Positions 2,403 through 61,800 of a stretch of DNA of 64,000 nt are shown here, one piece after another (the stretch's first letter is position 1; every line of letters begins with the position of its first letter). The position numbers and the translations under genes were made by a program. A model generated the notes under the pieces. That model did no database searches. It was not told the origin of the DNA and saw only the letters and a list, made by a program, of their open reading frames with translations. The DNA comes from an uncultured archaeon (GTDB lineage Archaea; Aenigmatarchaeota; Aenigmatarchaeia; GW2011-AR5), in the NCBI GenBank assembly GCA_964373255.1, contig CAYJTG010000003.1:25759-89758 (forward strand). Reading direction: 5' to 3'.

Positions 2403-2455
2403 GCTAAAAGTAAACTACAAATGGATTAAAATCCATTTGTAGGCGCAGGCGTGAA

Positions 2456-3082
2456 TTGTATCGTCTGCGGGCGAGCAGAAAGGGCGATATTAGTGCTTTA
2501 AAGATACATGAGTTAATTCTGAATATGCCAAACTTCTATTTTGACATAGAAACTACTGGTTTGGATCCTAAAGACCATAAGATAATAACAATACAGTTCA
2601 TGGAACTGGATTCTATAACATCCAAGCCAAAGGGAGAGTTGATTATACTAAAAGAATGGGAATCCTCGGAAAGAGATATGCTAAAAGAATTCATTGAACG
2701 TTCCAGAATAACAGACGATTACCCGTTTTCTTTTGTCCCCGTTGGCTATAACCTGAAATTCGAGCATAATTTTTTGATAGAAAGGACAAGGGTAAACAAA
2801 TTACAGGTTGTAGATATTTTGAAAAGACCTTTCATAGATTTGATACCTTTTGGAATAGTGATGAACAAAGGTCAGTTCAAGGGGTCAGGGTTAGACAAGA
2901 TAACAGGAAAGAATCGAGAAGGCAGCGTAATACCTAATTGGTATGACAAAAAGAACTATGACGAAATAATAAAATACATACAGAATGAGGCTGAAGAATT
3001 TGTTAAATTTTCTTCTTGGTTATACAAAGAGCTTCCACCAATGCTCAACAAATTCAAGAAAGAGCATGGAATAAATAAATAG
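2456..3082 (+). CDS. DnaQ-like (DEDD superfamily) 3'-5' exonuclease domain protein, YprB / RNase_H_2-like.
   Basis: Exo I motif 'YFDIETTGLDP'. Exo II-like motif 'GYNLKFEHNFL'. 208 aa. Confidence 0.55.
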   Translation: MYRLRASRKGDISALKIHELILNMPNFYFDIETTGLDPKDHKIITIQFMELDSITSKPKGELIILKEWESSERDMLKEFIERSRITDDYPFSFVPVGYNLKFEHNFLIERTRVNKLQVVDILKRPFIDLIPFGIVMNKGQFKGSGLDKITGKNREGSVIPNWYDKKNYDEIIKYIQNEAEEFVKFSSWLYKELPPMLNKFKKEHGINK

Positions 3083-3175
3083 TAAAATTAAACCCGAAAC
3101 TTTAACACAGTGTGTCCGTAACACTTAAATACTTTTAGTATATCATATTACACTAACTAATCTATCCAAGGTGTC

Positions 3176-3520
3176 TTGTGCATGAGAATCGAAATAAGAA
3201 AAAACGGTATGCCCGTTGCAATTGTTACGTTTCATACAAATCCAGAACGCTTCGACTCTGACTACGAAAGAATAAAATTCTTCAAGGAACTGCACGGATG
3301 GAAGCAGACCGTGCCAAAAAACGGTAAGAAGTATCTCTATCACAGGTCTGGTCTGCTGGATGAGGTGCCCCACATCAAGCTGGCCGACTCGGCATTTTTG
3401 ATAGCTATGGAGAACATGGAACGTGTAAGAAAATATTTTGAGGAGTGGTCCGACAAGGTGGAATGTGAGATGCTCCAGGTCATGATGAACGACAGAAAAA
3501 AGCTCGAGCAGTTGATGTGA
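3176..3520 (+). CDS. Hypothetical protein, 114 aa.
   Basis: ORF sits in the gap between the exonuclease gene and cdc48. I recognise no motifs. Confidence 0.35.
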   Translation: MCMRIEIRKNGMPVAIVTFHTNPERFDSDYERIKFFKELHGWKQTVPKNGKKYLYHRSGLLDEVPHIKLADSAFLIAMENMERVRKYFEEWSDKVECEMLQVMMNDRKKLEQLM

Positions 3521-3573
3521 TTTAGTATATTAAGGTGTTAATGACAAAATAAGTCATAAATAGTTCGTAACGG

Positions 3574-5868
3574 TTGGTGTTTTTTATGCCCAACAATGAG
3601 AAAGAAGACGAAGCCATGCTGAAGGTCGGCGAATTGACAGAGCGTGGCGACTTCGGCCGTGGCATTGCTAGAATATCTGCAAAGGACATGAAAAAAATAG
3701 GCGTCAGCGAAGGCGATGTCATTGAGATGGAAGGCAAAAGAAAGACCGGTGCCATAGCTGTCCGTGCTTATCCTGTTGACGTTGGTCTCGATGTCGTGAG
3801 AATGGATGGACTTGCCAGAAGGAACTGTGGTGCAGGCATTGGTGAGATTGTTAAAATAAGAAAGTCCGATGTGAAGGAAGCAAAATCCGTGACTATTGCA
3901 CCGGCTCGCAAAGGCATAATAATTCACATGGGCGGAAACCTGCTGAAACAGAACCTTCTGATGAGACCACTAGCTACGGGCGACATCATAATTCCTAATC
4001 CTATTGTACAGGATCGGAGGTCACAGACAACACTATTTGAGCAGTTCTTTGGCGTCGATTTCGGCGATTTTCTATTTACACCATTCGGCGAAGAGAAGTT
4101 CGCTGTTGTGAGCACCGAGCCAAAAGGTATTGTGCGCGTGACAAGGTCGACAGACGTTGAGCTGCTGCCACAGGCTACAAGGCCCATGGAGGAAGAGAAG
4201 ATCCCCGAGGTCACATACGAAGATTTGGGCGGGCTGCACGAGGAGATAAAAAAGGTTCGCGAAATGATTGAGCTGCCGTTGAAGCACCCTGAGCTCTTTG
4301 AACGTCTTGGTATCGAGCCGCCTAGGGGTATTCTATTACACGGCCCGCCAGGAACCGGCAAGACACTTTTGGCAAAGGCTGTTGCAAATGAGAGCGGCGC
4401 GAAATTTTTTGTTATTAATGGTCCGGAGGTAATGTCAAAATTTTACGGCGAGTCGGAGGAAAATCTTCGTAAGATATTTGAGCAGGGTGAAAAAAATGCG
4501 CCGAGCATAATTTTTATCGATGAAATAGACTCCATCGCGCCTAAGCGCGAGGAAGTCAAGGGCGAGGTTGAGAAAAGAGTTGTTTCACAGCTGCTCACGC
4601 TTCTGGACGGATTGAAATCCCGTGGAAAAATAATTGTCATCGGCGCGACAAACATACCGAATTCGATCGACCCCGCACTAAGAAGGCCGGGACGATTTGA
4701 CCGTGAAATTGAATTAGGCGTGCCCAACAAGGACGGAAGAAAGGAGATTTTGCAGATCCACACAAGGGGCATGCCGCTCGCAAAGAACGTCGAGCTTGAT
4801 AAAATATCTGAAATAACTTATGGCTATGTTGGTGCAGACCTTGCGGCGTTGAGCAAGGAAGCTGCGATGCACGCCCTCAGGCGCGTATTGCCGGACGTAA
4901 GCGCCATAAAAGATGACAAACCAATACCCATAGACATACTAAAAAAGCTCATTGTAACAAAAGAGGATTTTGACCACGCACTAAAGATTGTTGAGCCTTC
5001 TGCGATGAGAGAAGTACTTATCGAGATACCCAACGTAAAGTGGGATGACATAGGCGGACTGGAAGACGTCAAGAAGCTGTTAAAAGAAACCATTGAGTGG
5101 CCGCTTAAATATCCTGATTCGTACGTAAGACTGGGTATAAAACCACCCGCGGGCGTACTTTTATACGGGCCTCCCGGAACTGGAAAGACACTCCTTGCAA
5201 AAGCCGTGGCTAATGAAAGCGGCGCCAACTTTATTTCTGTTAAAGGGCCTGAACTTTTGTCCATGTACGTAGGCGAGAGTGAAAAGCACGTTCGTGAGGT
5301 TTTCAGGCGTGCAAAGCAGGTTGCACCCTGCGTAATATTTCTTGACGAAGTTGATTCTCTTGTACCAAGAAGAGGTACGTCGAACGACAGCCATGTAACT
5401 GAACGTGTTGTTTCGCAGCTCTTGGCAGAGATGTCAGGACTGGAAGATTTGCACGGTGTTATAGTTATCGCTGCGACGAATCGGCCTGACATTATAGACC
5501 CTGCGCTTCTAAGACCAGGTCGGCTAGACAGGCAGATACTTGTCCATACCCCTGACGATGCTGCAAGGCTGGAAATATTCAGGGTGCACACAAAATCTAT
5601 GCCACTTGCTTCTGATGTAGATATAAACGACGTAACAAGCCAAACAAAGGGCTTTTCAGGCGCAGACATAGAAGCCGTATGTCGTGAGGCTGCGTTGTTT
5701 GCGATGAGAAAAAACATAAGCACAGAGCAGGTAACAAGAAAAGATTTCGAACAGGCGCTGAAAGAAGTGAAGCCGTCTCTTACCGAAGAGATGAACCAGT
5801 TCTACGAGAGCATACTGAAGAAGAAAAAATCGCGCGTCATCGAGGAAGAAGTAAACTACATGGGATAA
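3574..5868 (+). CDS. cdc48: AAA+ ATPase Cdc48 / VAT (VCP-like ATPase). N-domain followed by tandem D1 and D2 AAA modules.
   Basis: Two Walker A motifs (GPPGTGKT, twice). Walker B DEID and DEVD. Both SRH regions present. 764 aa. Start possibly at about 3586 (MPNNEK). Confidence 0.92.
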
Positions 5869-6148: not shown

Positions 6149-6682
6149 CTAACCTTTGTGGTACTTCCCCCAGACTTCGACAAACTTCACAAAGTTGTCT
6201 ATTATTTTGAGCCCGTCGCCGCCTGATTCTGGATTGAAGTGGACGCCGAAAAAGGGCTTTTTGGCCTCGCCGATTATTTTGAATTTATACTTTGAAGAAG
6301 AAGCAATGACACTAAAGTTATCTGGGACCTCATCGAATGCATGTGTGCTGTTTTGAATTACGGTAAAAACACGCTTTAAATCGAGAGTCAGTGGGCATGG
6401 GTGTTCTATCTTTACATGATCTGACTTTTCGAATTTGCCTTCTCTGGCTTTGGCACCGTAAGCCACACCAAGAAAAACATATCCGGCACCAATACCAAGC
6501 AGGGGCTTGTTTATTTTCTCAATAATTTTCATATTATCTTTCAAATGTTTCATATTGCCGTCGGAAAGAATAAACCCACCGGCCTTAGCATTCAGGGCGT
6601 CCTTCGGCTTCATGATTTCCTTCTGGCCGCGCACAAATCTTTCGACGTCAGCGCCTTTTCCATTATCAACAATTACAATCAT
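6149..6682 (-). CDS. Class I glutamine-amidotransferase-like protein resembling GMP synthase subunit A. The catalytic Cys and its neighbouring His are substituted, so it is a predicted pseudo-amidotransferase.
   Basis: N-terminal 'MIVIVDNG' and C-terminal 'FGVHFNPE' match the GuaA-A fold. The nucleophile elbow reads 'LLGIGAGYVFLG', where canonical GuaA-A has 'ILGICLGHQLI'. That is Cys to Gly and His to Tyr. Confidence 0.65.
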   Translation of the reverse strand: MIVIVDNGKGADVERFVRGQKEIMKPKDALNAKAGGFILSDGNMKHLKDNMKIIEKINKPLLGIGAGYVFLGVAYGAKAREGKFEKSDHVKIEHPCPLTLDLKRVFTVIQNSTHAFDEVPDNFSVIASSSKYKFKIIGEAKKPFFGVHFNPESGGDGLKIIDNFVKFVEVWGKYHKG

Positions 6683-6745
6683 GAAATCATCTACTTTTTA
6701 TTAGTTAGCATAACCTTTTTATACATACTGTACGTCTTTTGCTGC

Positions 6746-7630
6746 CTATTTTGTCAGTATTATCGGCGGGTCGCTTATTATCAAAGTGTGTTCGGCCTGC
6801 GACACCATGCCGCCCTTTATCTCGCGCAGCACATTGTAGTCGTGAACAATACCGCGCTCTCTCAGTTCGCGAAGTGCTATCCTTACCTTGAATAATGAAT
6901 CTATCGGTATCCAACGCTCGGCGAAAGGCAGGCCGTTAAATGAATCGGCAAAATCTATTATCTTTCTTGCATCTGGATTTCTTACTGGCCTTTTTTCTAT
7001 TAGTGAGAATATGAAAACATTCTCAGAATCTTTTACAGCACCGCCGCCGTCAGTGGCAAATGGCTCTATGGCGATTACCTGGTTTTCTTTCAAACGGTAA
7101 TTGCTGCTGAAAGAAACGTTTGGAATGGTCGGTTCTGTGTGCAGGTCGTAGCGATTTATGCCGTGCCCTGTCAGATTGCTGACAGGTTTGAATCCGAAAC
7201 CTTTTATTGTCTCTTCTATTGTGAGCGCTATATCAGAAATCAGGATGTCTGGCACTGCTATTTTGACTGCTTCTTCCAGAGCCGTCTCTGCTGCTTTCAC
7301 CAAATCATCGTAGTCTTTGTTAAAATTTATCGTAACCGCCGTATCTCCAACGTAACCATCTACGTGGACGCCAACGTCAAGTTTCACTATACTGTTTTCC
7401 TTTATCACGTCGGTATCGTTTTTGGTCGGTGTGTGGTGTGCGGCTATATCGTTTATGGAGATGTTCACAGGAAAAGCCGGCTCCCCGCCTTTCTCTCGTA
7501 TGAGCGCCTCTATTTTTTCAGCGATATCAATTAGTCTTTCATTAACATCTACTATATTCCTGCTCGTCTCTCTGACTTCGGCGGCTATCTTGCCAGCCTT
7601 AATGTACTTTTCCATCACGTCTTTTTCCAT
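6746..7630 (-). CDS. map: Methionine aminopeptidase, type 2 (archaeal/eukaryotic type).
   Basis: 294 aa. The pita-bread fold metal ligand pattern is present (D..D..H..E..E context: 'VHVDGYVGDTA', 'HGINRYDLHTEP', 'IAIEPF'). Confidence 0.88.
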   Translation of the reverse strand: MEKDVMEKYIKAGKIAAEVRETSRNIVDVNERLIDIAEKIEALIREKGGEPAFPVNISINDIAAHHTPTKNDTDVIKENSIVKLDVGVHVDGYVGDTAVTINFNKDYDDLVKAAETALEEAVKIAVPDILISDIALTIEETIKGFGFKPVSNLTGHGINRYDLHTEPTIPNVSFSSNYRLKENQVIAIEPFATDGGGAVKDSENVFIFSLIEKRPVRNPDARKIIDFADSFNGLPFAERWIPIDSLFKVRIALRELRERGIVHDYNVLREIKGGMVSQAEHTLIISDPPIILTK

Positions 7631-7663
7631 GTGATTAATTCTGAGAAGAAGCTTAAATTCTTT

Positions 7664-8917
7664 CTAATGCCGTGAGTTGATTAATTCTTGCAGATTTTTG
7701 TAACCGTCTTTTTTGATGTATTTTGAAACGCCTTTCATCATTTTTTGTGCCAGTCCTAATCCGTAAAACGTGTACGGCGTATAGCCTTCTATTGCGTCTG
7801 CGCCTTGCAGAAAAGTTTCATAAGCGTCCCTGCCGTCAGATATCCCGCCAGTCGCGAATATTATTGTTTCTGGAAACGCCTCTCTTGTATCTCTTACTGC
7901 CCTACGTCTGTACTTTCTTAGAAATCGCCCACTTTTGCCTGCAGTTGCATAACCCCATTTCTCTGCTGGGACATTTTCCTTTTGAACCATGTAAGTATTG
8001 ACTGCTGTAACACCATCACCACCGCCCTTCATCCAACCTTCAACAAGCCTTAGCCATTCTTGCCTGCCTTCTGGCTCGTAGGGTCCCATCTTTACCTGTA
8101 ATAATTTATTTTTTATATATTTTCTTATCATTCTTGCATATTTCTCAAAAATATCTGGCCTGCGAAGCATTGACAGGGACTTCGTATTTGGTGAGAACGG
8201 GTTATACTCAAAGCCAGCTGCGTATGGATTAAAATCGTGAACAAGCACTTCAGCATCATTGTACGCATTCTCGAGCGCATTTTCTATTTCTGTATCTGGT
8301 ATATCTGCGAATTCTTTGTAGCGTATGATATTGGCAGTAGATTCTATTATCACCCTGTTTTTGTTTGGAGCAAAAGAATTTTTACCTTCTTCCTTAATAA
8401 CGTACGGCAAACCACATATGTTTGCAATTATAGGTTTTTTGGGTGCTTCTGAACTCTGATATTTGTTGAGGTTCTTTAGAGCATGGTCTTCACCCATAGA
8501 AGGAAAGCCTTGTGCATTGTATGCATTTTTATTTTTTACATCAACCGCAACCCTTGGTCTGTCATTGCCATCTCTTCTGTCAATTACAAATGTTCCCTTT
8601 GTAAGAAATCCAAATATATAAGAGAGCGGAATAATGGCATCTGCGTTCTTGTCCAAGCCCGCCGCAGTACCGAATGGCTGCATTCTTATGCCTTTGACAT
8701 CAACGGCAAGTTCTGGAAAATCAAAACAACTATTGTGAGCATCTATGACATTTGAATATTTACTGAGCATTTGTAATGCATGTTCATGAACCGCTTCCGG
8801 ATCTTTGTATCTTCTGTAAAGTTCCTTGCGCACAAAATTCTTGAAGAACCAAGGGCTGTGCAGAGAAATATGCATGCCTAGTTTTTCTATTGTCGTGCGC
8901 ATATTTGTAAAATTCAA
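7664..8917 (-). CDS. pyrD: Dihydroorotate dehydrogenase, class 2-like.
   Basis: N-terminal 'FVRKELYRRYKDPEAVHEHA' and 'FGTAAGLDKNADAI...RPRV' match class-2 DHODH. The Ser-containing 'NPFSPNT' is present. C-terminal 'IFATGGISDGRDAYETFLQGADAIEGYTPYTFYG' is the FMN-binding end. The middle region is divergent. Confidence 0.6.
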   Translation of the reverse strand: MNFTNMRTTIEKLGMHISLHSPWFFKNFVRKELYRRYKDPEAVHEHALQMLSKYSNVIDAHNSCFDFPELAVDVKGIRMQPFGTAAGLDKNADAIIPLSYIFGFLTKGTFVIDRRDGNDRPRVAVDVKNKNAYNAQGFPSMGEDHALKNLNKYQSSEAPKKPIIANICGLPYVIKEEGKNSFAPNKNRVIIESTANIIRYKEFADIPDTEIENALENAYNDAEVLVHDFNPYAAGFEYNPFSPNTKSLSMLRRPDIFEKYARMIRKYIKNKLLQVKMGPYEPEGRQEWLRLVEGWMKGGGDGVTAVNTYMVQKENVPAEKWGYATAGKSGRFLRKYRRRAVRDTREAFPETIIFATGGISDGRDAYETFLQGADAIEGYTPYTFYGLGLAQKMMKGVSKYIKKDGYKNLQELINSRH

Positions 8918-49541: not shown

Positions 49542-49600
49542 ATTTGCATATGTTTGAGAAAAATGTTTAAATACCGATTATTTAGATAGGATTCCATATT

Positions 49601-49700
49601 CGTATGATGATGGTCGACGTGAGAGGCATTATCTGTCGATAATGCCTCTAGCTGACATATACGTCAACTGACGTATATGTCTACGTCGACCATCATACTT
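49601..49700. repeat. Structured palindromic element: an outer inverted repeat enclosing two perfect 12-bp hairpins with 4-nt loops.
   Basis: Outer arms CGTATGATGATGGTCGACGTG (49601-49621) and TACGTCGACCATCATACT (49683-49700). Hairpin 1 AGAGGCATTATC-tgtc-GATAATGCCTCT (49622-49649). Hairpin 2 GACATATACGTC-aact-GACGTATATGTC (49654-49681). Confidence 0.6.
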
Positions 49701-49716
49701 TAATGGAATTCCATCA

Positions 49717-50829
49717 TTATTTGCCAATAATTCTTGTTATCTTTGGCAAAAGAAACCGTGCAAGTTTGAATTTCGGGAGTTTTTTCCATTCGTCGCTGAG
49801 CTTGTCGTAATCAAAGCCGTCGAGCATGGACAGGACGTAACCAAAATCTTTGAACATCCCATCGATTTCTTTGTTTGTCAGTTTTCTGTATATCATTCTC
49901 AGCATATACTGCTTCTCTATTTCCCATGCTATATCCTTTTTCCACATTTTTTCATAGCTGCTGAGAAAATGTTTGCTGAACGTACCTTCTTTCAGCGCGC
50001 TGTTTATTACATCAGCGGCGTGCTGCGCCGCCATCATCGAGTACATTATTCCGCCTCCAGTCAGCGGCTTATTCTGGCCGCACGCGTCGCCTATCAGGAG
50101 CGCGTTGTTCTCGTAGCTTTTTGTGTAAGTGTACGGTATCATGTAGGCGTACATCTTACCCGGTGGCAGGTACGTTTTCTTGACAAAATAGTCAAAGTAA
50201 TCTTTTGGCCGTACGCACGTCATTATTCCGTACTCGTTGTTTTGCGGTATAATCCAAGAAAAGAAATCCGGCGAGAAATATTTGTTGAAAAATACGCTTA
50301 TGTCGCCTTCCATTTTTTGCCGTGTCTTCACCATTATACCCAGCGCGACTTTTGGATTTTCTATATTCATTGCACGCCTTACAACAGAATTAGTGCCGTC
50401 ACACCCGACGACAATTTTTGCCCTGTATTCTTCGTCTTTTGTCTTAACGACCGCACAGTTTTCAGCAAACTTGACCGATTCGACGGTTTCATAAGAAATG
50501 TCTGCATTTTTCCTTGCGTTTTTTCTAAGAGACCTGCCGAACATTTTCCTTCTGAGTATGTATGCGTAAGGCTCGTCTGACTGAAGGGAAAACGTGTGCC
50601 CGGAAGGCGATACGCATTCCATTTTGTTTATTCTGAATTTTACAAGCTTTTTGGCAGAACCACCAAAAATGTTGTCGAACCTTGTAGAAACTATGCCGCT
50701 GTCCTTTGGAATTACTTTTCTGTTTTGCTCCAAAATAAGCACGCTATACTTTGGGTTTATCCTTGACGCCAGGTAGCTTCCAGCGATACCGGCACCGGCA
50801 ATAACAACGTCGTACATGACAACACTCAT
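49717..50829 (-). CDS. FAD-dependent geranylgeranyl reductase family protein. Candidate polyprenol / dolichol reductase.
   Basis: 'YDVVIAGAGIAGSYLA' FAD-binding site. 370 aa. GGR/FixC-like. Confidence 0.72.
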   Translation of the reverse strand: MSVVMYDVVIAGAGIAGSYLASRINPKYSVLILEQNRKVIPKDSGIVSTRFDNIFGGSAKKLVKFRINKMECVSPSGHTFSLQSDEPYAYILRRKMFGRSLRKNARKNADISYETVESVKFAENCAVVKTKDEEYRAKIVVGCDGTNSVVRRAMNIENPKVALGIMVKTRQKMEGDISVFFNKYFSPDFFSWIIPQNNEYGIMTCVRPKDYFDYFVKKTYLPPGKMYAYMIPYTYTKSYENNALLIGDACGQNKPLTGGGIMYSMMAAQHAADVINSALKEGTFSKHFLSSYEKMWKKDIAWEIEKQYMLRMIYRKLTNKEIDGMFKDFGYVLSMLDGFDYDKLSDEWKKLPKFKLARFLLPKITRIIGK

Positions 50830-50919: not shown

Positions 50920-51768
50920 ATGTATATGTTCACCGACAAGCACTGGAAAGCATTCATGTGGATAACAATAGTGTTCCTTATCTTTTCTGTTGCGCTGCTG
51001 GCAAACAACATAATAACAACGGGTTCTTTTCTGGAAAGGGATATAGACCTGAGCGGTGGAAAGTTAATAACGGTCGAGGTGAAAGATGCTGACATAGGTA
51101 AAATAAAATCTGCAGTTCCGTATGCAAATGTTCGCCTAACGTCAGGCGCGACAAGGTTCCTGCTTGTGGAAATGCCTTTTGGTGCCGATGAAAATGACGT
51201 GCTCGAACAGATAAGAAATATTGCTGTCCTGCAGGGTGAGCCTAGCATACGCATCGTAGGTCCTTCAATCGGCAACATTTTTTTTCAGCAAGCACAGACG
51301 GCTATGATCGCTGCATTTGTGCTGATGGCGATTACGGTTTTCATGCTCTTCAGGGCAGTAGTTCCGTCGTTGATCGTGCTTTTTGCCGCACTGACAGATA
51401 TTCTGGGCACGATGGCTGTACTTTCTATAATAGATATGCCGTTGTCATTGCCCGTGATAGGTGCGCTACTTGCCTTGATAGGTTATTCTGTCAGCACCGA
51501 CATACTGCTGACAACAGAACTGCTAAAAAGCGGCAGAACCGACTATTCTAAAAGCATAAGAAAAGCTGCGAAAACCGGGATAACCTTAACCGGGACTGCG
51601 CTGATAGCTTTGGTGTGTATGTTCTTCCTAGCTGGTTCGACTGTGATACAGCAGATTGCCCTTGTAATGCTCATAGGCCTGGTAATAGACATGCCTGCTA
51701 CGTGGTTCACGAATGCCGGTGTGCTTCGGTTGTGGATAGAGAGAAAGCAAAGGGGTGCTCAGCGATGA
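50920..51768 (+). CDS. secF: Protein-export membrane protein SecF.
   Basis: 282 aa. Six TM helices and a periplasmic loop. Overlaps the secD start (ATGA). Confidence 0.82.
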   Translation: MYMFTDKHWKAFMWITIVFLIFSVALLANNIITTGSFLERDIDLSGGKLITVEVKDADIGKIKSAVPYANVRLTSGATRFLLVEMPFGADENDVLEQIRNIAVLQGEPSIRIVGPSIGNIFFQQAQTAMIAAFVLMAITVFMLFRAVVPSLIVLFAALTDILGTMAVLSIIDMPLSLPVIGALLALIGYSVSTDILLTTELLKSGRTDYSKSIRKAAKTGITLTGTALIALVCMFFLAGSTVIQQIALVMLIGLVIDMPATWFTNAGVLRLWIERKQRGAQR

Positions 51769-53381
51769 ATACGTTTTTGAAAAATCCTAGAGTGCTCATA
51801 TGGATTTTTTTCATAGTTGTTTCTATAATTGTTATAGCGCCAAATCCAAATCCACATGGTTTTGTTGTTGTCTCCGTCAACAGAACAATAGTCAACAATA
51901 TTGATCTTGGAGAAGTGATTTACACAGTAGACGACAAACCTGCAACAGCCGACATGTTTAACGATAATTATTTTGGTATAGTCAAAATTGGCACGGGCAA
52001 AGGAATAAAGTATGTGAATCTAAACGGTACGCTCGGCATCGGTGCAAACAGCGTGCCTTCTACAAATATAAGGTTCGGGCTTGACATAAAAGGTGGTGTC
52101 CGTGCCATCCTCGAGCCCAACGTTTCTACAAACGCAACTTTAGATCAGGTAATATCCACGCTTGAGGAGAGAATCAACTTCTATGGTCTGCGCGAGTCTG
52201 TCTTCAAACCGATTTATTACGAGGGTAAAGGCTTCATAGAAGTAAACATAGCAGGCGGCACAAAAGAGGAACTCAAAAATCTTATAGAGAGTCAGGGAAA
52301 CTTCGAGGCCAGGATACCGTTTACCGTATCTGTAACGGGCAACCAATTCGCGCTGAAACTGGACAAAAATTATGCAGTGCCTGTAGAAAATTCTTCCATA
52401 GTTATCGACGGCAAAAATGTACATACCGGCGAGCCGTTTTATTTGTCGGGCATTGATTTCATGCTCAACGACATAAATTCCGGCCGCGTTAACATCACCG
52501 CAAAAGTCTTTGGTGGTGATGACGTAGTCACAGTATTTCTAGATCCGCAGAGAACAAGAATAGAAAAGCTGGCAGACGGCTACAGCTGGACGTTCTCAGT
52601 TCAGCTGAGCAAAACAGGCGCGCAGAAATTTGCATACGTCACAAACAATATCAACCAGCTCGCCACAGGATACCTGGAATCGCCGATAGTCTTTTACCTG
52701 GACGGTAATTTAGTAGATTCTCTCAACATAGCATCATCTCTTAAAGGCAGAACAGAAACAGAGATCGCAATTAGCGGCGGCGCCGACACACAAAAAGAAT
52801 CCTCCCGTGAGATGGTACAGCTGCAGTCGATACTGCGATCGGGCGCGCTCCCGACTACCGTTGAGATTGTCCAGCTTGACACTGTTTCTCCAACCCTTGG
52901 CGCAGGGTTCCTGAAGAGTGCTATCTTTGCTGCGCTTGCTGCGCTGCTTGGCGTCATTATTTTTGTATCGCTGCGGTACAGAAAGCCAAAGCTGGTCGTA
53001 CCGATGATTTTTATATCAATAACAGAAATACTTATTGTCATTGGCGTGTCGACCATTATTGGATGGACGGTTGACCTAGCCGCTATAGCAGGCATAATCG
53101 CGTCAGTCGGCACAGGCATAAGCGACCAGATAATAATTCTTGACCGCGCATTAAGAAAAGAGGGGGAATACGAAGAAACGCTTCATGAAAAAATAAAGAA
53201 GGCGTTCTTTGTCGTTTTCGGCACAGCCGGCACTGTTATTGCGGCGATGCTGCCGCTTATGTTTATCGGCTTCGGGCTGCTGCGCGGCTTCGCACTCATA
53301 ACGATAATAGGCGTGCTTGTAGGAATCCTGGTAACGCGCCCTACCTACGGCGTTATTATTGAACGCCTCATGAAGGAATAG
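51765..53381 (+). CDS. secD: Protein-export membrane protein SecD.
   Basis: Start taken at the Met of MNTFLKNPRV, overlapping the secF stop. Large periplasmic domain followed by a C-terminal six-TM bundle. Confidence 0.82.
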   Translation: MNTFLKNPRVLIWIFFIVVSIIVIAPNPNPHGFVVVSVNRTIVNNIDLGEVIYTVDDKPATADMFNDNYFGIVKIGTGKGIKYVNLNGTLGIGANSVPSTNIRFGLDIKGGVRAILEPNVSTNATLDQVISTLEERINFYGLRESVFKPIYYEGKGFIEVNIAGGTKEELKNLIESQGNFEARIPFTVSVTGNQFALKLDKNYAVPVENSSIVIDGKNVHTGEPFYLSGIDFMLNDINSGRVNITAKVFGGDDVVTVFLDPQRTRIEKLADGYSWTFSVQLSKTGAQKFAYVTNNINQLATGYLESPIVFYLDGNLVDSLNIASSLKGRTETEIAISGGADTQKESSREMVQLQSILRSGALPTTVEIVQLDTVSPTLGAGFLKSAIFAALAALLGVIIFVSLRYRKPKLVVPMIFISITEILIVIGVSTIIGWTVDLAAIAGIIASVGTGISDQIIILDRALRKEGEYEETLHEKIKKAFFVVFGTAGTVIAAMLPLMFIGFGLLRGFALITIIGVLVGILVTRPTYGVIIERLMKE

Positions 53382-53384
53382 AAT

Positions 53385-53475
53385 AGTATCTCCGAAAGTG
53401 AGGTATACGCCTCTTGGCGTATACCTCGGTAGAGGATTACTGCCAACAGGCAGTAATCCAACTTTCGGAGATACT
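53385..53475. repeat. Structured palindromic element with the same architecture as 49601-49700: a perfect 15-bp outer stem enclosing two perfect 11-12-bp hairpins with 4-nt loops.
   Basis: Outer arms AGTATCTCCGAAAGT (53385-53399) and ACTTTCGGAGATACT (53461-53475). Hairpin A GAGGTATACGCC-tctt-GGCGTATACCTC (53400-53427). Hairpin B GGATTACTGCC-aaca-GGCAGTAATCC (53434-53459). Lies between the convergent secD and nac genes. Confidence 0.6.
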
Positions 53476-53484
53476 GTAGAAAGT

Positions 53485-53826
53485 TCATTTTTCTTCTTTC
53501 TCGGCTTCTCTCAGCTCTACGATGGCTTTTGCCAGGTCATTGTCAAGCTCCTCGAGCTTTTTGACGACCGTCTCCCTGTCTTTGCCGGTCTTGTCCATAA
53601 CCATTTTTATGTCGTCCTCGTTGACTGGCACGGACTCCGAGACCTCGCCCGTAACCTGGTAGATGTCGCGGCCCATCATATTAGCCAGCATGACCTCCGG
53701 GTTGGAGATTATTATGCTCTTCGATTTTGTTTTTATGACAACTACGTCCGCAGGAATCTGCTGCACATTCATGTTTAGTTTCTTCATCACCTTTTCAAGC
53801 TTTTTCGGGTCGGGCGCTCCAAACAT
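53485..53826 (-). CDS. nac: Nascent polypeptide-associated complex protein (NAC alpha), with a NAC domain and a C-terminal UBA-like tail.
   Basis: 'KKLEKVMKKLNMNVQQIPADVVVIKTKSKSIIISNPEV...' Start taken at MFGAPD. The ORF track extends the ORF 5' to 53922. Confidence 0.8.
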   Translation of the reverse strand: MFGAPDPKKLEKVMKKLNMNVQQIPADVVVIKTKSKSIIISNPEVMLANMMGRDIYQVTGEVSESVPVNEDDIKMVMDKTGKDRETVVKKLEELDNDLAKAIVELREAEKEEK

Positions 53827-53996
53827 TGTACCACCAATTTGCCTTGGCATTGTCAACTTAAGGAGCACATAGTGGAATCGAAGATTCCACTTGTGCAGGT
53901 GAAGCTTTGCTTCACCATGCATTAGCCGTTGCTAATGCTCCAGAAAGGGGTGTTATCATTTGCCTTTAATTATTTTCATTCCCTAAATTTAAAGGT

Positions 53997-56060: not shown

Positions 56061-56180
56061 GGCACTGTCACCTTAACGGCTGTTGAAACAAACTGACGCA
56101 CTAAAGTGCGTCTATCTGCTTTGACAACAGCCCTTTCTGGGTGGTTAGCAATGGCTAACCACCCTTAAGTTGACAGTGCC
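56061..56180. mobile_element. MITE-like element, copy 2 (about 120 bp). Same TIRs and core as 1525-1721 but without the ~77-bp internal segment.
   Basis: TIRs GGCACTGTCACC (56061-56072) and GTTGACAGTGCC (56169-56180). Flanking direct repeat TAAGATT / AAAGATT. Confidence 0.55.
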
Positions 56181-56199: not shown

Positions 56200-58929
56200 T
56201 TATTCAAGTACGACCTTCTTTCCCAATGAGCCGTGGAAGCTGATGAGGACCTCTCCGCCGCAGTCGCACAGGCCTCTTATAGGCGCGCGCCTGTAGCTAC
56301 GGTTGCACGATTTGCACACAAATTCGTCCCATCCGCCCAGTTCGCCGGCTGTATTTTCGTTCGTATCTTCGGTATGGTTGTATGCGATGTCGATGTCCTT
56401 TTTTGTGGTGCGCCTTTTTCCCAGCAGCAGGTCTCCTAAGCTTACCTGCCGTCCGTTTCCAAGCAGCTCTGACTTTTCGACGCCTACCGCAGAGAGAATT
56501 CTTTCTATCGGCGGAAACAGCTGGCTCTCGATATAGTAGTTCGAGTCGATTGGTATGTTGTGCTTCTCGGCGTACGCCGGGTCTTCTGCGCGCTTTGAAA
56601 GCATCAGGTTGCCCTTGATAATAACAAATCCTATCCGATCGCCGATCTTTGGCGCGTCGTATGGGTTTCTTGCCGCAAGCTTCCTTGCAAGCTCTATGTG
56701 CGGAAGAATGCCTTTGTAGCTGTCCAGCCCCTGTGTGATGCCCTTTATGATTGTCAGTTTTTCCATCGGTATCTCGTTCTTGCGCAGCTTGTTCAATATG
56801 CCCTTTATGTAATCTATTGCCTTCTGTACGTCCCCTTCCTTGAGTATTATGTTCAGCGTTGTCATCATCGTCTCGCTCACGAGGGCACACCAATCTCTTC
56901 GCACGGTCTCGATGCCGCGCATGTCTATCTCATCGGTCCACCCGTTATCTGTCTGTTCGAACTTCCAGCCGGCGTATCTCTTTTTTGACAGGATAAGAAA
57001 CGTCCTGTATATTTTCTCAAACTGCAGTTCCAGCTGGCCTGGCAGGTTTTCTGTGACGAATTCTGATATCTTTTTGCCAGTCTCTTTGGCCTCATCCAGA
57101 TTGGTCGTTTTTGTCTTGATGAACATGGAATCCGTGTCAGCGTACAGAACCTCAAGCCCAAATTCTTTTTCCACCAGATTTTTTGTCTTTTCCAGATTTT
57201 CGCGCCCGAAGGCTGTTATAGAGTTCGCAACGTCGATCATGTAAAGCCTTGCCCTCACGTATCCCGTATACCCGTAGAACGAGTTTGACATGTCCTTCAA
57301 TGCGAGCTGCTTGGCGTTGAGGATTCTTCTTTCTTCGCCGGTTTTTGTTTTCATGAGTCCTTTAATTTTGCTTCGCGTCTCGATAAGCCTTTCCAAAACA
57401 GAGGGAAATATTCCCTTGTATAAGTCTTGGTCCACGAAAAGTGTGCCGATCGGCGATTCGTGGTGCTTTAGATCTGCTGTCTCTGATGTAAGGACGCTGT
57501 CTGGCGAAATGTTGTACGTCCTCATGATGGAAGGGTAGAGGCTCTTGAAATCCAGGACTATGACGCACGTATCTGCGTGCAGGCCTTTATTTGGCTCCAG
57601 CACGGTGGCGCCCTTGAGCTCTTTTTCTTCTCGTTCTTTTGTGCGCCTGTAGAGCTCCTGCCTGGAGTGCGCCGATGACATGACAACATCCCTTTTCTTA
57701 AACTCGTGAAGAAGCATTGTCTCTATCCTTTTTGTCTGCCCACCGAAGGTATCCTGAAGAAGGACGCCTGATATCTTTGAAAGCTCAAAGAATTTGTTGA
57801 GCATTCCCTTTTCTATGAGCAGTTTCATCGACAGGTCCGCGTCCTTTCTCGAGTACTCAATGAATTTTACCATATTCTGCCTTGTGCTGTTCCAGAGCTC
57901 TGCCATCTCCGAGTACGCAACCCCGTGTTTTTCCTCGTCGAGGAGCTTCTTTGCTACTGTTCTTAGGTCGTAGCGGTGCAGCTTTACCCACGGGTCTCTT
58001 TTCAGTATCTGGTAGGGGTCAACAACAACGCGCCCGGCTACAATAAACTCCTGGGTTATGCCATAAGTTTTGGAAAATGCGTCCTTGTCACACCTTCCTA
58101 TTGACAAAGGCAGCTTGTTTTGCTTTAGCCTTTCGATTATGTAAGGCAGGTCAAATGAATTTATGTTGTAGCCTGTTATTATGTCGGGATCATAAGAATC
58201 GATAATGCACAGCAACTCTTCGAGCATCTCCTTTTCGTTTCTAAAGCCCCTTACGCCGTCGCCAAAAAATGGTTTCGCCACAAGAACTGTGGATTTTGAG
58301 CCCCTGAAGTCCGGCCTGAAAGAGAGCGATACCATAACGATTGGGTCGTGCCTCGCGTCAACGGGCTTTTTGTCGTCCGAAGGTATGCATTCAATATCAA
58401 GGGCCATATAGCTGAGTGGCGCGTTCTCCAGGCTCTCAACGGGGTTTATTTTGTCTGCCTTGTAAGCCGCGACCTTTGACCTCACTGTTTTTTGTTCGTG
58501 TGTGCCTTCGACCTCTACCCACTGCATGCCGTTAAGTCCGTGGTCTACCATGAACCTGTACTTGAACATGATATCCGCTTCGTACACGTCCTGTGCGATA
58601 CCTGTGGATATGAGCTTCTCCCTGACGTGCGGCACGTCCTGCGGGTTGAACAGCATGACCTTGAGCATCTTTGTTTTGCTCTTCTGATAGCCGAGCGGGA
58701 TGAATTTTTCTGTTGGCTCGATGTCTTTTATTTCTTTCATGCCCTCGACGGCCGTAATGGCTTTTCCTGCCGTCATTTTTTCGCTCAGCCTCATGTAGAA
58801 GTAGGGAGTTACCTTGTCGTAAAGTACACAGCACGGTGCCCCGTTTTCTGTGCGCCCAAATATTCTTATAATGGGCTTGTTAGTATTGACAAAATAGTCT
58901 ATGTCTAATATCTGCATTTTGAAAAGCAT
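56200..58929 (-). CDS. polB: Family-B DNA polymerase (PolB) with an intact 3'-5' exonuclease domain and a C-terminal Cys4 zinc-ribbon extension.
   Basis: Exo I 'LDIECIP', Exo II 'YNINSFDLPYI', Exo III 'YSRKDADL'. Pol motif A 'DFKSLYPSI', motif B 'KDMSNSFYGY', motif C 'YADTDS'. C-terminal 'CKSCNRSYRRAPIRGLCDCGG'. Start at the Met of MLFKMQILDIDY, preceded by a GGGGGT Shine-Dalgarno-like sequence. The ORF track extends 5' to 59037. Confidence 0.9.
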   Translation of the reverse strand: MLFKMQILDIDYFVNTNKPIIRIFGRTENGAPCCVLYDKVTPYFYMRLSEKMTAGKAITAVEGMKEIKDIEPTEKFIPLGYQKSKTKMLKVMLFNPQDVPHVREKLISTGIAQDVYEADIMFKYRFMVDHGLNGMQWVEVEGTHEQKTVRSKVAAYKADKINPVESLENAPLSYMALDIECIPSDDKKPVDARHDPIVMVSLSFRPDFRGSKSTVLVAKPFFGDGVRGFRNEKEMLEELLCIIDSYDPDIITGYNINSFDLPYIIERLKQNKLPLSIGRCDKDAFSKTYGITQEFIVAGRVVVDPYQILKRDPWVKLHRYDLRTVAKKLLDEEKHGVAYSEMAELWNSTRQNMVKFIEYSRKDADLSMKLLIEKGMLNKFFELSKISGVLLQDTFGGQTKRIETMLLHEFKKRDVVMSSAHSRQELYRRTKEREEKELKGATVLEPNKGLHADTCVIVLDFKSLYPSIMRTYNISPDSVLTSETADLKHHESPIGTLFVDQDLYKGIFPSVLERLIETRSKIKGLMKTKTGEERRILNAKQLALKDMSNSFYGYTGYVRARLYMIDVANSITAFGRENLEKTKNLVEKEFGLEVLYADTDSMFIKTKTTNLDEAKETGKKISEFVTENLPGQLELQFEKIYRTFLILSKKRYAGWKFEQTDNGWTDEIDMRGIETVRRDWCALVSETMMTTLNIILKEGDVQKAIDYIKGILNKLRKNEIPMEKLTIIKGITQGLDSYKGILPHIELARKLAARNPYDAPKIGDRIGFVIIKGNLMLSKRAEDPAYAEKHNIPIDSNYYIESQLFPPIERILSAVGVEKSELLGNGRQVSLGDLLLGKRRTTKKDIDIAYNHTEDTNENTAGELGGWDEFVCKSCNRSYRRAPIRGLCDCGGEVLISFHGSLGKKVVLE

Positions 58930-58981
58930 AATAATACCCCCGAATGAAACATTTCGTTTTATTTCATAATGTTCTTTACTA

Positions 58982-60115
58982 TTACTTTCCGAATATCTGG
59001 ACCTGCTTTGCATCCCTTGTTTCAAGGTCGATGACAACCGGCCGGAAGTCTGCGAGCATCGACCCTGATGTGGCTATTGTAACTGATTTGTAATTCGTGA
59101 CCTGTGACCCGCTGGCGTGGCCGAAGCACACGATGTCCGGGGTGTCTTCGAGCACAAAGTAATTTTCCTCTGATACCGCCTTTCCGTGGCCGAGGTAACG
59201 CTTTTTTAGCATGCTTAATTCAAATTCGTGTATGACGAGTATCTTTACCCCGTTTATCTCCAGAAACGCCGGATCGCTCAGTGATAATATTTTCCCCGTG
59301 CTGAACTGAACCGGCAGTCTTGGATAAGCGCCGCGTGTGTCCCGCTCGCCCGGGATAAATACAACCTCTTTTTCTCTGCAGTACCTGTCTACCATTCGTT
59401 CGAACGTGCCTATATCACCGACGTCGCCTGCCACAACAAGGTATTTTATATCTTCATTCTCAAACCATAAAAAGAATTTTTCTATTTCACCGATAGGCGC
59501 CTCATCGATCATCAGGTTAGAAACAAGGCACACTTTCCCCCAGCCGACAGTTGGCTGTCGCAGCGGTATGTCCGGCTGTATGACCTGCTTTCCGAACAGG
59601 ATGTTTTTTGATGAAATGGCCCTTATCGCAACGACGTCGTCTGTACCTATATCAGGCTTACCCTCAAAAATGATTGAGGCCGCCCCTGTGTTGTCTTCGA
59701 TATCGACGGTGGTCTTGTCGCCGTTGTCCCTTATGTCACGCACAATTCCTATAACGTAGGACTCATCGAGGTACGCGCCGACCTTGTTTATCGAGACGAA
59801 CGGTTTTCTTATTCTGCTTGTCAGTATTTCTCTGATTTTTTCGTACTTTGCCCTGTAAAAATTTGCAAAATCATCTGGTGTCAGCGTGGTTTTCGGCGCT
59901 GTCAGATTTTTGATTATTTTTATTTCGTCTTTTTTTGCTGCGCTTTCTCTGTGCGCAAAATCCGGCCTATCGAGTACGAGGTCTCCGCCAACCATGCCGC
60001 TGATTTGTTCGTCTGTTATCGTTGCTAACAAATCCGGTGTCAGAAGCTTGCCCTTGCTCAGCAGCTTTTTTACGATTTCCTCTTTCATGCTAAAGATACC
60101 GCCTTTATAGATCAA
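58982..60115 (-). CDS. DP1-like protein, homologous to the PolD small subunit / eukaryotic polymerase B-subunit. Its calcineurin-like phosphoesterase motifs look degenerate.
   Basis: 'FLWFENEDIKYLVVAGDVGDIG' matches the DP1 'YLxIAGDxVDG' block. The DxH position reads 'VSNLMID', the GNHD position reads 'IPGERD', and the GHxH position reads 'CFGHAS'. 377 aa. Confidence 0.55.
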   Translation of the reverse strand: MIYKGGIFSMKEEIVKKLLSKGKLLTPDLLATITDEQISGMVGGDLVLDRPDFAHRESAAKKDEIKIIKNLTAPKTTLTPDDFANFYRAKYEKIREILTSRIRKPFVSINKVGAYLDESYVIGIVRDIRDNGDKTTVDIEDNTGAASIIFEGKPDIGTDDVVAIRAISSKNILFGKQVIQPDIPLRQPTVGWGKVCLVSNLMIDEAPIGEIEKFFLWFENEDIKYLVVAGDVGDIGTFERMVDRYCREKEVVFIPGERDTRGAYPRLPVQFSTGKILSLSDPAFLEINGVKILVIHEFELSMLKKRYLGHGKAVSEENYFVLEDTPDIVCFGHASGSQVTNYKSVTIATSGSMLADFRPVVIDLETRDAKQVQIFGK

Positions 60116-60130
60116 AACGTCTCTTGATGA

Positions 60131-61390
60131 TTAGCTGAACTTGCCGTCAAGAAACTGCACTACCCTGTCAAAGGCACTTCCGGTAACCGATAAAACAATT
60201 TCCCTCGTTCTTCCATGACGACCGTTTGATACGACCTTCGTCGTTATTATGCTCAGCATGTCTAATTCGCCTATAAGATCGCTGACCCTGCGCTGTGTTA
60301 ACGGTTTCAGCCCGTTGCCATCACAGGTTGCCTTATACGCCTCGTATACGTCCCCTGTAAATATCCTTTTGTCGTTCCATCCTTTCTGGGTTTTCATTTT
60401 TTCTGTGACCTTGATGATTGCGTATAAAACTGCCTGAGAGTGTGTTGGCTGGGCTTTTATGCCTTCTGTTATGCGGTCCAGGTCCATTTTCTGCTCAGCC
60501 ATGTCAACGTGCTGCTCTTCAACGGCGCTGTGCCCCATTCGTTCGGCAACCTCGCCTGCCACGCGCAAGAGGTCTAGCGCCCTTCTTGCGTCACCGTGCT
60601 CCTGTGCAGCTATGGCAGCGCACTTGTTTATAACCGCCTCGTCAACAGCGCTTGGTATAAAGCCGTGTAACACCCTTTCTGTGAGTATGTCTTTAATCTG
60701 GGCTGCGTTGTACGGCCTGAACAAGATTTCTTCCTCAGACAGCGATGATCTGATGCGGAGGTCTAGGTTGTTCTGCAGTGAGAGGTCGTTGGTTATGCCG
60801 ACAACGGTTATGTAGCTGTTCTTGAGCTCGTGATTTATGCGTGTGAGGTTGTACAAAAACTCGTCCCCGATCTTCTTCACCAAGGTGTCGACCTCATCCA
60901 GAACAAGAATAATTGTGCTATTCATACGTTCAACCCTGTCAAAAAATTTTCTGTAAAGCACGTTTGTCGGCAGGCCTGTATCAGGGACGTGTTCACCAAG
61001 CTCTTTCAGCAGCTGTGCGACAAGCCTGTATTCTGTGTCTGCCACCTTCTTCATCTTACAGTTTATGTAGACAACGCGGAGCTTTGGGCTGTTTGCCATA
61101 GAAATGAGCTGGCTTGCGACAAATTTCATGGTTATTGTCTTTCCGGTACCGCACGTGCCGTAAATAAATATGTTGTTTGGCCGGTAGCCCTTCAGCACCG
61201 GCGCGAGGACCGAGCTTATCTGTCCTATTTCGTTGTCACGGTGTGTGATCTTCTCAGGAATAAACAGCGATGTCAAATAGTTCTTGTCCCTAAAGATGTT
61301 GCCCTTATGTATGTATTGAGAAAATATGTTGCTACTAATGCTTGTCTTTTGGACCAGTCTTGACACTACCAACACCCCACCAGAAATCAT
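60131..61390 (-). CDS. orc1: Orc1/Cdc6 replication initiator, an AAA+ ATPase with a C-terminal winged helix.
   Basis: Walker A 'GTCGTGKT', Walker B 'ILVLDEVD', sensor motifs. 419 aa. Confidence 0.9.
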   Translation of the reverse strand: MISGGVLVVSRLVQKTSISSNIFSQYIHKGNIFRDKNYLTSLFIPEKITHRDNEIGQISSVLAPVLKGYRPNNIFIYGTCGTGKTITMKFVASQLISMANSPKLRVVYINCKMKKVADTEYRLVAQLLKELGEHVPDTGLPTNVLYRKFFDRVERMNSTIILVLDEVDTLVKKIGDEFLYNLTRINHELKNSYITVVGITNDLSLQNNLDLRIRSSLSEEEILFRPYNAAQIKDILTERVLHGFIPSAVDEAVINKCAAIAAQEHGDARRALDLLRVAGEVAERMGHSAVEEQHVDMAEQKMDLDRITEGIKAQPTHSQAVLYAIIKVTEKMKTQKGWNDKRIFTGDVYEAYKATCDGNGLKPLTQRRVSDLIGELDMLSIITTKVVSNGRHGRTREIVLSVTGSAFDRVVQFLDGKFS

Positions 61391-61800
61391 TACATTATGA
61401 CAACCACGCCAAACAGTAATGATTCAACCACAATATAAGTAAAAACAACCCAAAGTAATTACACCATTATTTCTCTTGGAGGATATATAAACATATCTCT
61501 ACTGGAAATCAACGTTACTGAAAATATAGTTTCAAAACAAGACAGCTCCCCTATATTTCTTGTGGAACTTTTAAACAAACAATTACATAAATAACACTGT
61601 TATAAGAAAGAAAGGGTACGTTTTGTGTTTCTTTTCTTCAAAACTTGTTCTCACCACTAGTCGTTCATTAGAAATAATGGGGTCTGCTATACAGAAATGC
61701 GTATAAATTGCGTGATACCGTACTAATTCCCGATAAAACCAATAATAATCCAACAACACAATAACAGACCAAACCAATTTGTTCTTGCTTATTCCACAAT
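61391..61800. promoter_or_regulatory. Candidate replication origin (oriC): an AT-rich intergenic region next to orc1 carrying ORB-like TCTnnTGGA repeats.
   Basis: Direct repeats TCTCTTGGAGG (~61472), TCTACTGGAAA (~61498) and TCTTGTGGAAC (~61558). An inverted copy ATTCCACAAT (~61791) lies across an AT-rich stretch (61570-61790). The arrangement sits directly upstream of orc1. Confidence 0.4.

Follow-up and report, generated by a model that had tools for sequence, protein, structure and literature searches.

The window (the whole 64-kb stretch of DNA that was analysed) has a GC content of 40% and is assigned by its SecD homologues to the DPANN phylum Aenigmarchaeota; a SecD scan of a genome collection matched a single, distant relative. 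A short element, here termed E1, lies between the convergent genes secD and nac. The genes around it are housekeeping genes (STT3, FAD oxidoreductase, secF/secD, nac, tctA, PolB and Cdc6), together with a glycosylation cluster. E1 is 93 bp long and has no coding capacity of its own; the plus-strand ORF 53398-53778, which crosses it, starts within the element and runs antisense to nac, which it overlaps. The parts of E1, its relatives E2 (in the window) and E3 (on contig L010 of a related metagenomic Aenigmarchaeote) and the neighbouring GGCAC elements are listed in Table 1.

Table 1. Positions of the elements, their parts and the genes next to E1 (window coordinates, except for E3)
Feature	Position (strand)	Size, sequence or structure	Remarks
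secD	51765-53381		convergent with nac
nac	53485-53826		convergent with secD; true start 53826
E1 left target-site duplication	53379-53383	TAGAA	includes secD stop codon TAG (53379-53381)
E1 full repeat unit	53384-53476	93 bp	T + 91-bp junction + G
E1 three-way junction	53385-53475	91 bp	
E1 outer stem, 5' arm	53385-53399	AGTATCTCCGAAAGT	terminal inverted repeat; 15/15 complementary to 53461-53475
E1 hairpin A	53400-53427	12 bp, loop TCTT	homologous to hairpin 2 of E2/E3
E1 hairpin B	53434-53459	11 bp, loop AACA	minus strand TGTT, as loop 1 of E2/E3
E1 outer stem, 3' arm	53461-53475	ACTTTCGGAGATACT	
E1 right target-site duplication	53477-53481	TAGAA	abuts the 93-bp unit
E2 core	49607-49696 (+)	14-bp outer stem, two 12-bp hairpins	junction strands G / AGCT / T
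E2 probable full element	49584-49715 (+)	AGATAGGATTCCAT / ATGGAATTCCATC	outermost imperfect inverted repeat
E2 possible left duplication	49577-49583	ATTATTT, 7 bp	tentative: AT-rich region, boundaries not independent
E2 possible right duplication	49716-49722	ATTATTT, 7 bp	overlaps FAD-oxidoreductase stop codon 49717-49719
E3	L010:1390-1477 (-)	13-bp outer stem, two 12-bp hairpins, 4-nt loops	junction G / AGCT / T, as E2
GGCAC MITE copy 1	1525-1721	120-bp MITE with nested 77-bp insertion	7/8 matching flanking repeats
GGCAC MITE copy 2	56061-56180	120 bp	7/8 matching 8-bp flanking repeats
GGCAC element 3, truncated variant	53846-53958	left end GGCATTGTCAACTTAAGG, three consecutive hairpins inside	degenerate right end
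Duplications of GGCAC element 3	53838-53845 and 53959-53966	TTTGCCTT	perfect, 8 bp

Architecture and insertion site of E1

An earlier note on this DNA had described a 15-bp outer stem around two hairpins of 11-12 bp with 4-nt loops, about 91 nt in all, and this description was exact. From one end to the other the junction reads AGTATCTCCGAAAGT / GAGGTATACGCC TCTT GGCGTATACCTC / GGTAGA / GGATTACTGCC AACA GGCAGTAATCC / A / ACTTTCGGAGATACT, with junction strands of 0, 6 and 1 nt. A single three-way junction was predicted from each strand. The minimum free energies of the two RNA strands were -67.2 and -63.8 kcal/mol (z = -14.3 and -12.1; 0 of 200 shuffles reached the same stability), and the DNA folding energy was -40.6 kcal/mol (z = -14.6). 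With its perfect outer repeat, an inversion of the inner part of E1 ("flip/flop") is indistinguishable from an inversion of the whole element.

A count of perfect hairpins with 11- or 12-bp stems gave seven in the window, every one with a 4-nt loop, against about 0.2 with an 11-bp stem and none with a 12-bp stem in the shuffled window. A relaxed descriptor was also used, comprising an outer stem of at least 7 bp and two hairpins of at least 7 bp each. E1 and E2 were its sole matches in the window; none was found in 30 shuffles, and none in 52 kb from four related genomes. When the 64 kb were folded in 120-nt pieces, the two most stable were E1 (-68 kcal/mol) and E2 (-65 kcal/mol), the mean being -21.5 and the standard deviation 7.2. 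On the hairpin counts, the descriptor scan and the folding energies together, the layout of E1 and E2 stands far above chance, and the frequency was not the random one that the earlier note had named as refuting its reading.

The repeat unit extends beyond the 91-bp junction. An extra T at one side and G at the other (C and A on the other strand) were kept in every copy with a readable flank, namely the read-throughs into the proteins P0121, P0122 and P0123 described below, and beyond these bases the flanks diverge. The unit was therefore taken as 93 bp. The ends of E1 are T-AGTATCTCC, and the end sequence of the E1 type is TAGTATCTCCGAAAGT.

Identical 5-mers abut both ends of this unit, for which the chance is about 1e-3 with fixed boundaries; the TAGAA duplication was seen at the DNA level for a single copy, E1. 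Removal of E1 and one TAGAA gave TAG-AAAGT-TCA, with 5 nt between the stop codons of secD and nac, so the stop-to-stop distance was formerly just 5 nt in this reconstruction. The empty-site sequence expected at the secD-nac junction is GAATAGAAAGTTCA. The insertion would thus have entered the 5-bp target TAGAA in this 5-nt gap, and duplication of the target would have left secD and nac both intact. In its present position the 91-bp core starts 3 nt past the secD stop codon and 9 nt past that of nac.

Relatives of E1 in the window and in other genomes

E1 and E2 lie in opposite orientations in the window, the minus strand of E1 aligning with the plus strand of E2. The earlier note had called the sequences of the two elements unrelated; this was not borne out. 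In hairpin 2, 20 of 28 positions matched between E1(-) and E2 (GAGGTATACGCCAAGAGGCGTATACCTC and GACATATACGTCAACTGACGTATATGTC) by reading of the alignment, and by the same reading all stem differences were compensated. The central CCTCTA and the TGTY loop were common to both. The predicted fold of E2 reaches its outermost repeats and a weak homology to the flanks of E3 runs past the perfect core, but the boundaries of the full element (Table 1) were chosen after these flanks had been seen. A pattern made from the positions common to E1 and E2 was found at one locus in the JGI metagenome collection, and this locus is E3.

E2 and E3 were 91% identical by column, and each stem difference was a double change that keeps a Watson-Crick pair. 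In the outer helix 4 of the 13 common pairs differed and one pair was deleted, and the helix was still perfectly paired. In the two inner hairpins, also perfectly paired, 1 of 12 and 2 of 12 pairs differed. Conservation between E2 and E3 was highest in the loops (TGTY and AANN), at the closing GT/AC pairs and in the junction strands; loops and junction strands were partly conserved in E1 too. Across E1, E2 and E3, 18 of 39 pairs had changed on both sides and 97.4% of cells were paired, a count made on three sequences with a structure derived from the same three; slid-partner controls gave 1-4 doubly changed pairs. The three unpaired cells were a register artefact in E1 hairpin 1, with no pair broken in its own register. 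With E2 and E3 as its sole sources, a covariance model recovered E1(-) at 67 bits and had no further match in 125 kb, although much of the score is one of shape, the reverse strand of E2 itself reaching 74 bits. E2 and E3 are a sister subfamily of E1, and all three elements have diverged as copies within one mobile family. The earlier suggestion of a family with conserved shape and divergent sequence was thus supported by the doubly changed pairs, with the amendment that its members are related copies that have diverged.

The outer helix of E2 and E3 varies most and is perfect all the same, and this suggests that base pairing itself is kept rather than a fixed protein-binding sequence. The inner palindromes and the outer repeat might instead be duplex binding sites for dimeric proteins, a transposase or a host factor, in which case the covariation would reflect half-site symmetry and no folding would be needed. 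Every helix is indeed a perfect palindrome with a fixed 4-bp centre, and the neighbouring IS6-like MITE conserves its terminal repeats. Set against this, the outer repeat of E2 and E3 is the least conserved part and still perfectly complementary, the variable positions are symmetric in every member, which is unexpected for weakly constrained positions of a protein site, and conservation is higher in the 4-nt centres than in the arms. Half-site symmetry was judged very unlikely as the explanation.

The earlier note had counted three instances of the architecture, the third being the core of the MITE at 56061-56180. E1 and E2 are alike; the MITE is of looser build and belongs to another family. 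Its interior consists of a nested stem around a 7-bp hairpin and an 11-bp perfect hairpin. The end common to the three GGCAC elements of the window is GGCAYTGTCAACTTAA, and the ends of the copies at 1525-1721 and 56061-56180 are GGCACTGTCA(A/C)CTTAA. These ends carry GG tips and a cTGT...caa motif, as do IS6-family ends (PMC7986276). The GGCAC MITE is a family separate from E1, E2 and E3, with IS6-like ends. The truncated third element lies 12 nt upstream of the nac start codon, where the nac-tctA gap is 170 nt in the window and 51-53 nt in relatives. The long nac ORF 53485-53922 (-) starts inside this element and is a mechanical extension. A 77-bp insertion (1632-1708) in the right arm of copy 1, missing from copy 2, has the inverted repeat AAACAAGAAA...TTTCTTGTTT and may itself be a very small element that entered the MITE. 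Inside the GGCAC elements, too, perfect hairpins with loops of 3-4 nt follow one another in strings. The window has 11 perfect hairpins of 9 bp or longer, of which 8 were inside inserted elements, and relatives had 0-1 such hairpins; hairpin-rich interiors are a theme of the small elements in this genome.

The members of the E family occupy different sites. Window positions 1750-4976 and L010 are syntenic, with a nucleotide identity of 67-78%. In L010, E3 stands upstream of radB; the window has no family member at the corresponding site, so that E3 and the members in the window are at non-orthologous sites. No clear target duplication was seen for E3. In the intergenic region upstream of radB where L010 has E3, the window has a lone perfect hairpin of 12-13 bp (2415-2442, CTACAAATGGATTAAAATCCATTTGTAG). 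Relatives share the gene order STT3, FAD-oxidoreductase, secF, secD, nac, tctA with the window. The STT3-FAD gap is 48-62 nt in relatives and 175 nt in the window, and E2 is thus absent from this conserved site in the relatives. At the secD-nac region no empty site comparable to that of E2 was seen: L006 has a spacer of 123 nt without a family element, and L008 and L009 carry a GATase gene. SecD identity to the closest relatives compared is 65-73%.

Further copies were found when six-frame translations of E1, E2 and E3 were used as protein queries. Three NCBI proteins (P0121, P0122 and P0123) begin with translated E1-type copies that differ from E1 at one or two residues. The GNAT protein P0123 is on another contig than P0121 and P0122; all three are probably from the same genome as E1. 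There are therefore at least three further near-identical copies of the E1 type, known from protein translations only. The DNA changes that they imply were uncompensated, by inference from codons, and the flanks of P0121 and P0122 are compatible with 5-bp duplications within the ambiguity of the codons. E1 accordingly shows the size, terminal inverted repeats, target duplication and several copies that characterise a MITE, the copies being known in part from protein translations. With the site polymorphism seen for E2 added, the family would fall within the operational definition of a MITE.

The N-terminal extensions of P0121 and P0123 from E1-type copies are spurious; P0122 looks wholly spurious and runs antisense through an apparent tRNA gene. 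Logan contigs L002-L005, from the same organism, stop at elements: at 53407/53408 in E1, at 49682 directly after hairpin 2 of E2, at 53913 within the 53846-53958 element and at 56101 within the 56061-56180 MITE. The last of these, the end of L005, lies 30 nt past a copy-specific variant at 56071, which agrees with k = 31. The breaks at E1 and E2 imply common or variant sequence from about 53378 and to about 49711, which extra copies and strain variants would give alike.

Several other features of the window and of L010 were observed. The CDC48/AAA ATPase gene of L010 (about 6200-8190) is interrupted in frame by about 660 aa (CVDGDTE...LFAHN) resembling an intein, and the CDC48/AAA gene of the window (3574-5868; comparison site 4435-4456) lacks this insertion. 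Beside E3, at L010 1500-4503, a stretch of low GC (30-34%) holds a small membrane-protein ORF and an 817-aa ORF, the latter a putative DNA methyltransferase by eye. These ORFs have no counterpart at the matching window position, and the segment may be an inserted island. In the window, genes for PolB, a PolD-small-subunit-like phosphoesterase and Cdc6/Orc1 stand in a row (56200-61788). The gap of about 400 nt after cdc6 (61391-61788) has a 23-nt imperfect inverted repeat (61461-61483 / 61661-61683); it may be a replication origin, 8-12 kb from the elements.

Propagation of the family and the probable part of the fold

The reading that was favoured, with somewhat better than even confidence, is that of a new family of structured, non-autonomous, MITE-like elements. 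A folded strand or a cruciform would be needed in their propagation, selection for the fold would act in the lineages that remain competent for transposition, and the elements would be mobilised in trans. Compensating changes would keep the fold while the sequences of the helices, above all of the outer helix, drift. Some step of propagation would require that one strand be folded, or that a cruciform be extruded, and the shape would be read by the transposing enzyme or by a host factor. Lineages that keep the fold would continue to be copied, and daughter copies would decay through uncompensated changes. The enzyme would be encoded elsewhere, by default a DDE-type transposase making staggered cuts; this type is favoured by the target duplication.

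A folded intermediate is suggested by the variation being greatest in the outer helix with pairing still perfect, the reverse of what a terminal repeat read by sequence would show. The uncompensated changes in the E1-type copies known from proteins are those expected of decaying daughter copies. Among the approximately 38 ORFs of the window that were scanned no transposase was found, which is consistent with a non-autonomous element. Since compensating changes have kept its helices perfectly paired, the folded shape of E1 probably matters for its spread. The role of the fold is something we infer, since internal hairpins are not required in classic TIR-MITEs, which manage without them.

Perfect Watson-Crick pairing could also be obtained from hairpin-templated correction without selection. 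In its full form this would be a functionless, mutational upkeep of palindromes, in which strand switching at a hairpin during replication copies the change of one arm into the other. The stems of the three DNA copies, all perfect and without wobble, are what such a process predicts, and long perfect hairpins are enriched in this genome relative to its relatives. It would leave unexplained why members are dispersed over non-orthologous sites, why a duplication flanks E1, why there are extra copies almost identical to it and why loops and junction strands are conserved, and the extra copies appear, from their codons, to bear mismatches that were not corrected. Upkeep of this kind was considered highly improbable as the whole account.

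An element useful to the host was also weighed, such as a structured RNA or a transcript-end element (a bidirectional terminator, a stabiliser of mRNA 3' ends or a small RNA) that had spread and been co-opted, or had arisen in place. Both the secD and the nac transcripts probably enter E1, given its distance of 3 and 9 nt from the two stop codons. The RNA fold is very stable on both strands, and covariation, the usual signature of a functional RNA, is observed among E1, E2 and E3. Against these points, the members differ in gene context, E1 standing in a convergent pair of genes, E2 in a tandem one (beside the STT3 start) and E3 in a divergent one, and related genomes have no members at the orthologous sites. 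Not one G-U pair was found in about 113 bp of family helices, which is unusual in RNA. Transcription termination in archaea depends on oligo-T and has no need of hairpins. Searches of Rfam gave no match at the gathering threshold, nor any at E up to 10; the best sub-threshold match on E1 was to a miRNA model (23 bits against a threshold of 86). A host RNA or transcript-end function was regarded as distinctly unlikely, and the proposal of the earlier note that the element might be a bidirectional terminator or a small RNA was set aside on the mixed contexts and on the Rfam result. An intrinsic or bidirectional terminator was likewise rejected for its inconsistent placement at 3' ends. Other RNA classes fitted no better. 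The hammerhead was rejected for the 0-, 6- and 1-nt junction strands, too short for its core, and a K-turn was dropped after a check of the junction strands by eye; a scan for tRNA and tmRNA found none.

Movement as single-stranded DNA by an HUH (Y1) enzyme that recognises folded hairpins, in the manner of REPIN/RAYT or of the hairpin ends of IS200/IS605 (PATEs), would account for a shape that is kept while the sequence drifts. It would agree with the conserved loops and junction strands, and with the lack of a clear duplication at E3. The stems of the three DNA copies contain no G-T pairs, and P0121 and P0122 imply three uncompensated changes, each of which would be a G-T wobble on the same strand, a coincidence of just 1 in 8; both points lean the same way. 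Y1 HUH transposition (IS200/IS605) generates no target duplication, and this route is therefore weakened by the 5-bp duplication flanking E1. The GTAG/CGTC tag is also absent, the inner hairpins are not copies of one another, and genes for HUH, RAYT or TnpB proteins were not found in the scanned part of the window. The HUH route, the chief alternative to the favoured reading, was accordingly held to be unlikely.

The favoured reading, a non-autonomous element that passes through a folded form, leaves the manner of recognition to be considered. A structure-specific transposase, one possibility named in the earlier note, may be at work. The stronger proposal, in which the enzyme that mobilises or processes the family reads the DNA (or RNA) three-way junction by shape and not by sequence, was thought unlikely. 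Were it true, the outer helix would be free to vary, and the sequence read would be confined to the junction strands and the loops (TGTY and AANN).

Comparison with known systems

MITE density is high in some DPANN genomes (PMC11602168), and literature searches yielded only this census-level mention of MITEs in DPANN. The small mobile elements of these archaea have been counted in censuses and hardly characterised. The E family offers a clean case of helix sequences that drift with perfect pairing. This points to propagation through a folded intermediate and opens a way to the enzyme that would read the fold. There are practical consequences too. Small elements such as these and the neighbouring MITEs break short-read assemblies, as at the ends of the Logan contigs, and they lead gene callers to add false N-terminal extensions (P0121 and P0123). 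The genome is very compact, and insertions in it abut stop codons (E1 and E2) or sit 12 nt before the nac start (53846-53958).

The closest known kinds are structured bacterial MITEs and REPINs; collections from Rfam, viruses, plasmids and phages gave no match. Viral contigs scanned with four patterns yielded no family member, BLAST against plasmids and phages no family match, and six-frame translations of E2 and the GGCAC MITE no match in the protein database.

IS6-family ends have GG tips, cTGTt and caaa motifs in the terminal inverted repeats and 8-bp duplications (PMC7986276). E1, E2 and E3 were not assigned to IS6-derived MITEs, as these end motifs are absent and, in place of 8 bp, the duplication measures 5 bp in E1 and perhaps 7 bp in E2. 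We know of no autonomous IS that matches the ends of the E family.

A REPIN consists of two inverted copies of one imperfect REP that form a single long hairpin, with a GTAG/CGTC tag and without target duplication (PMC3116915; PMC3733652). E1 and the REPIN/REP/BIME elements with their RAYT are all tiny, intergenic, palindromic repeats with apparent selection on the fold, spread within a genome and an enzyme supplied from elsewhere. Unlike a REPIN, E1 encloses within an outer helix two inner hairpins that differ from each other; it lacks the tag and is flanked by a 5-bp duplication. Membership of the REPIN/REP-RAYT class was rejected because the inner hairpins differ, the terminal tetranucleotide tag is absent, the duplication is of 5 bp and a Y1 transposase was not found in the window.

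The attC sites of integrons are imperfect hairpins with extrahelical bases and R-box core sites, and occur in cassette arrays next to intI. E1 was not taken for an attC site, its stems being perfect, without the GTTRRRY/RYYYAAC core, and the elements standing as single copies between housekeeping genes. The AAV ITR, of which 125 nt fold into a T shape, forms the end of the viral genome, where as a hairpin it primes replication and an HUH Rep protein nicks it. Like E1, it has an outer stem around two short perfect palindromes and is of similar size, a likeness of shape only. E1 differs as an internal chromosomal insertion with a target duplication, without a Rep gene, Rep-binding repeats or a terminal position.

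The structured prokaryotic MITEs (Correia/NEMIS, ERIC, BOX, RUP and RPE) share more with E1. Both are shorter than 150 bp, non-coding, bounded by terminal inverted repeats and flanked by a duplication, and both occur in several copies between the genes of a compact genome without a transposase of their own. Unlike these MITEs, the whole of E1 is a three-way junction of three perfect helices. The terminal helix of the E family is the part most variable between subfamilies with pairing kept, the opposite of the sequence-read terminal inverted repeat of MITEs. If the shape is what is read, the family would be an archaeal counterpart of the structure-read elements, which include attC sites, REP/RAYT and the hairpin ends of parvoviruses, and DPANN archaea would then harbour structure-specific mobile DNA of a new class.
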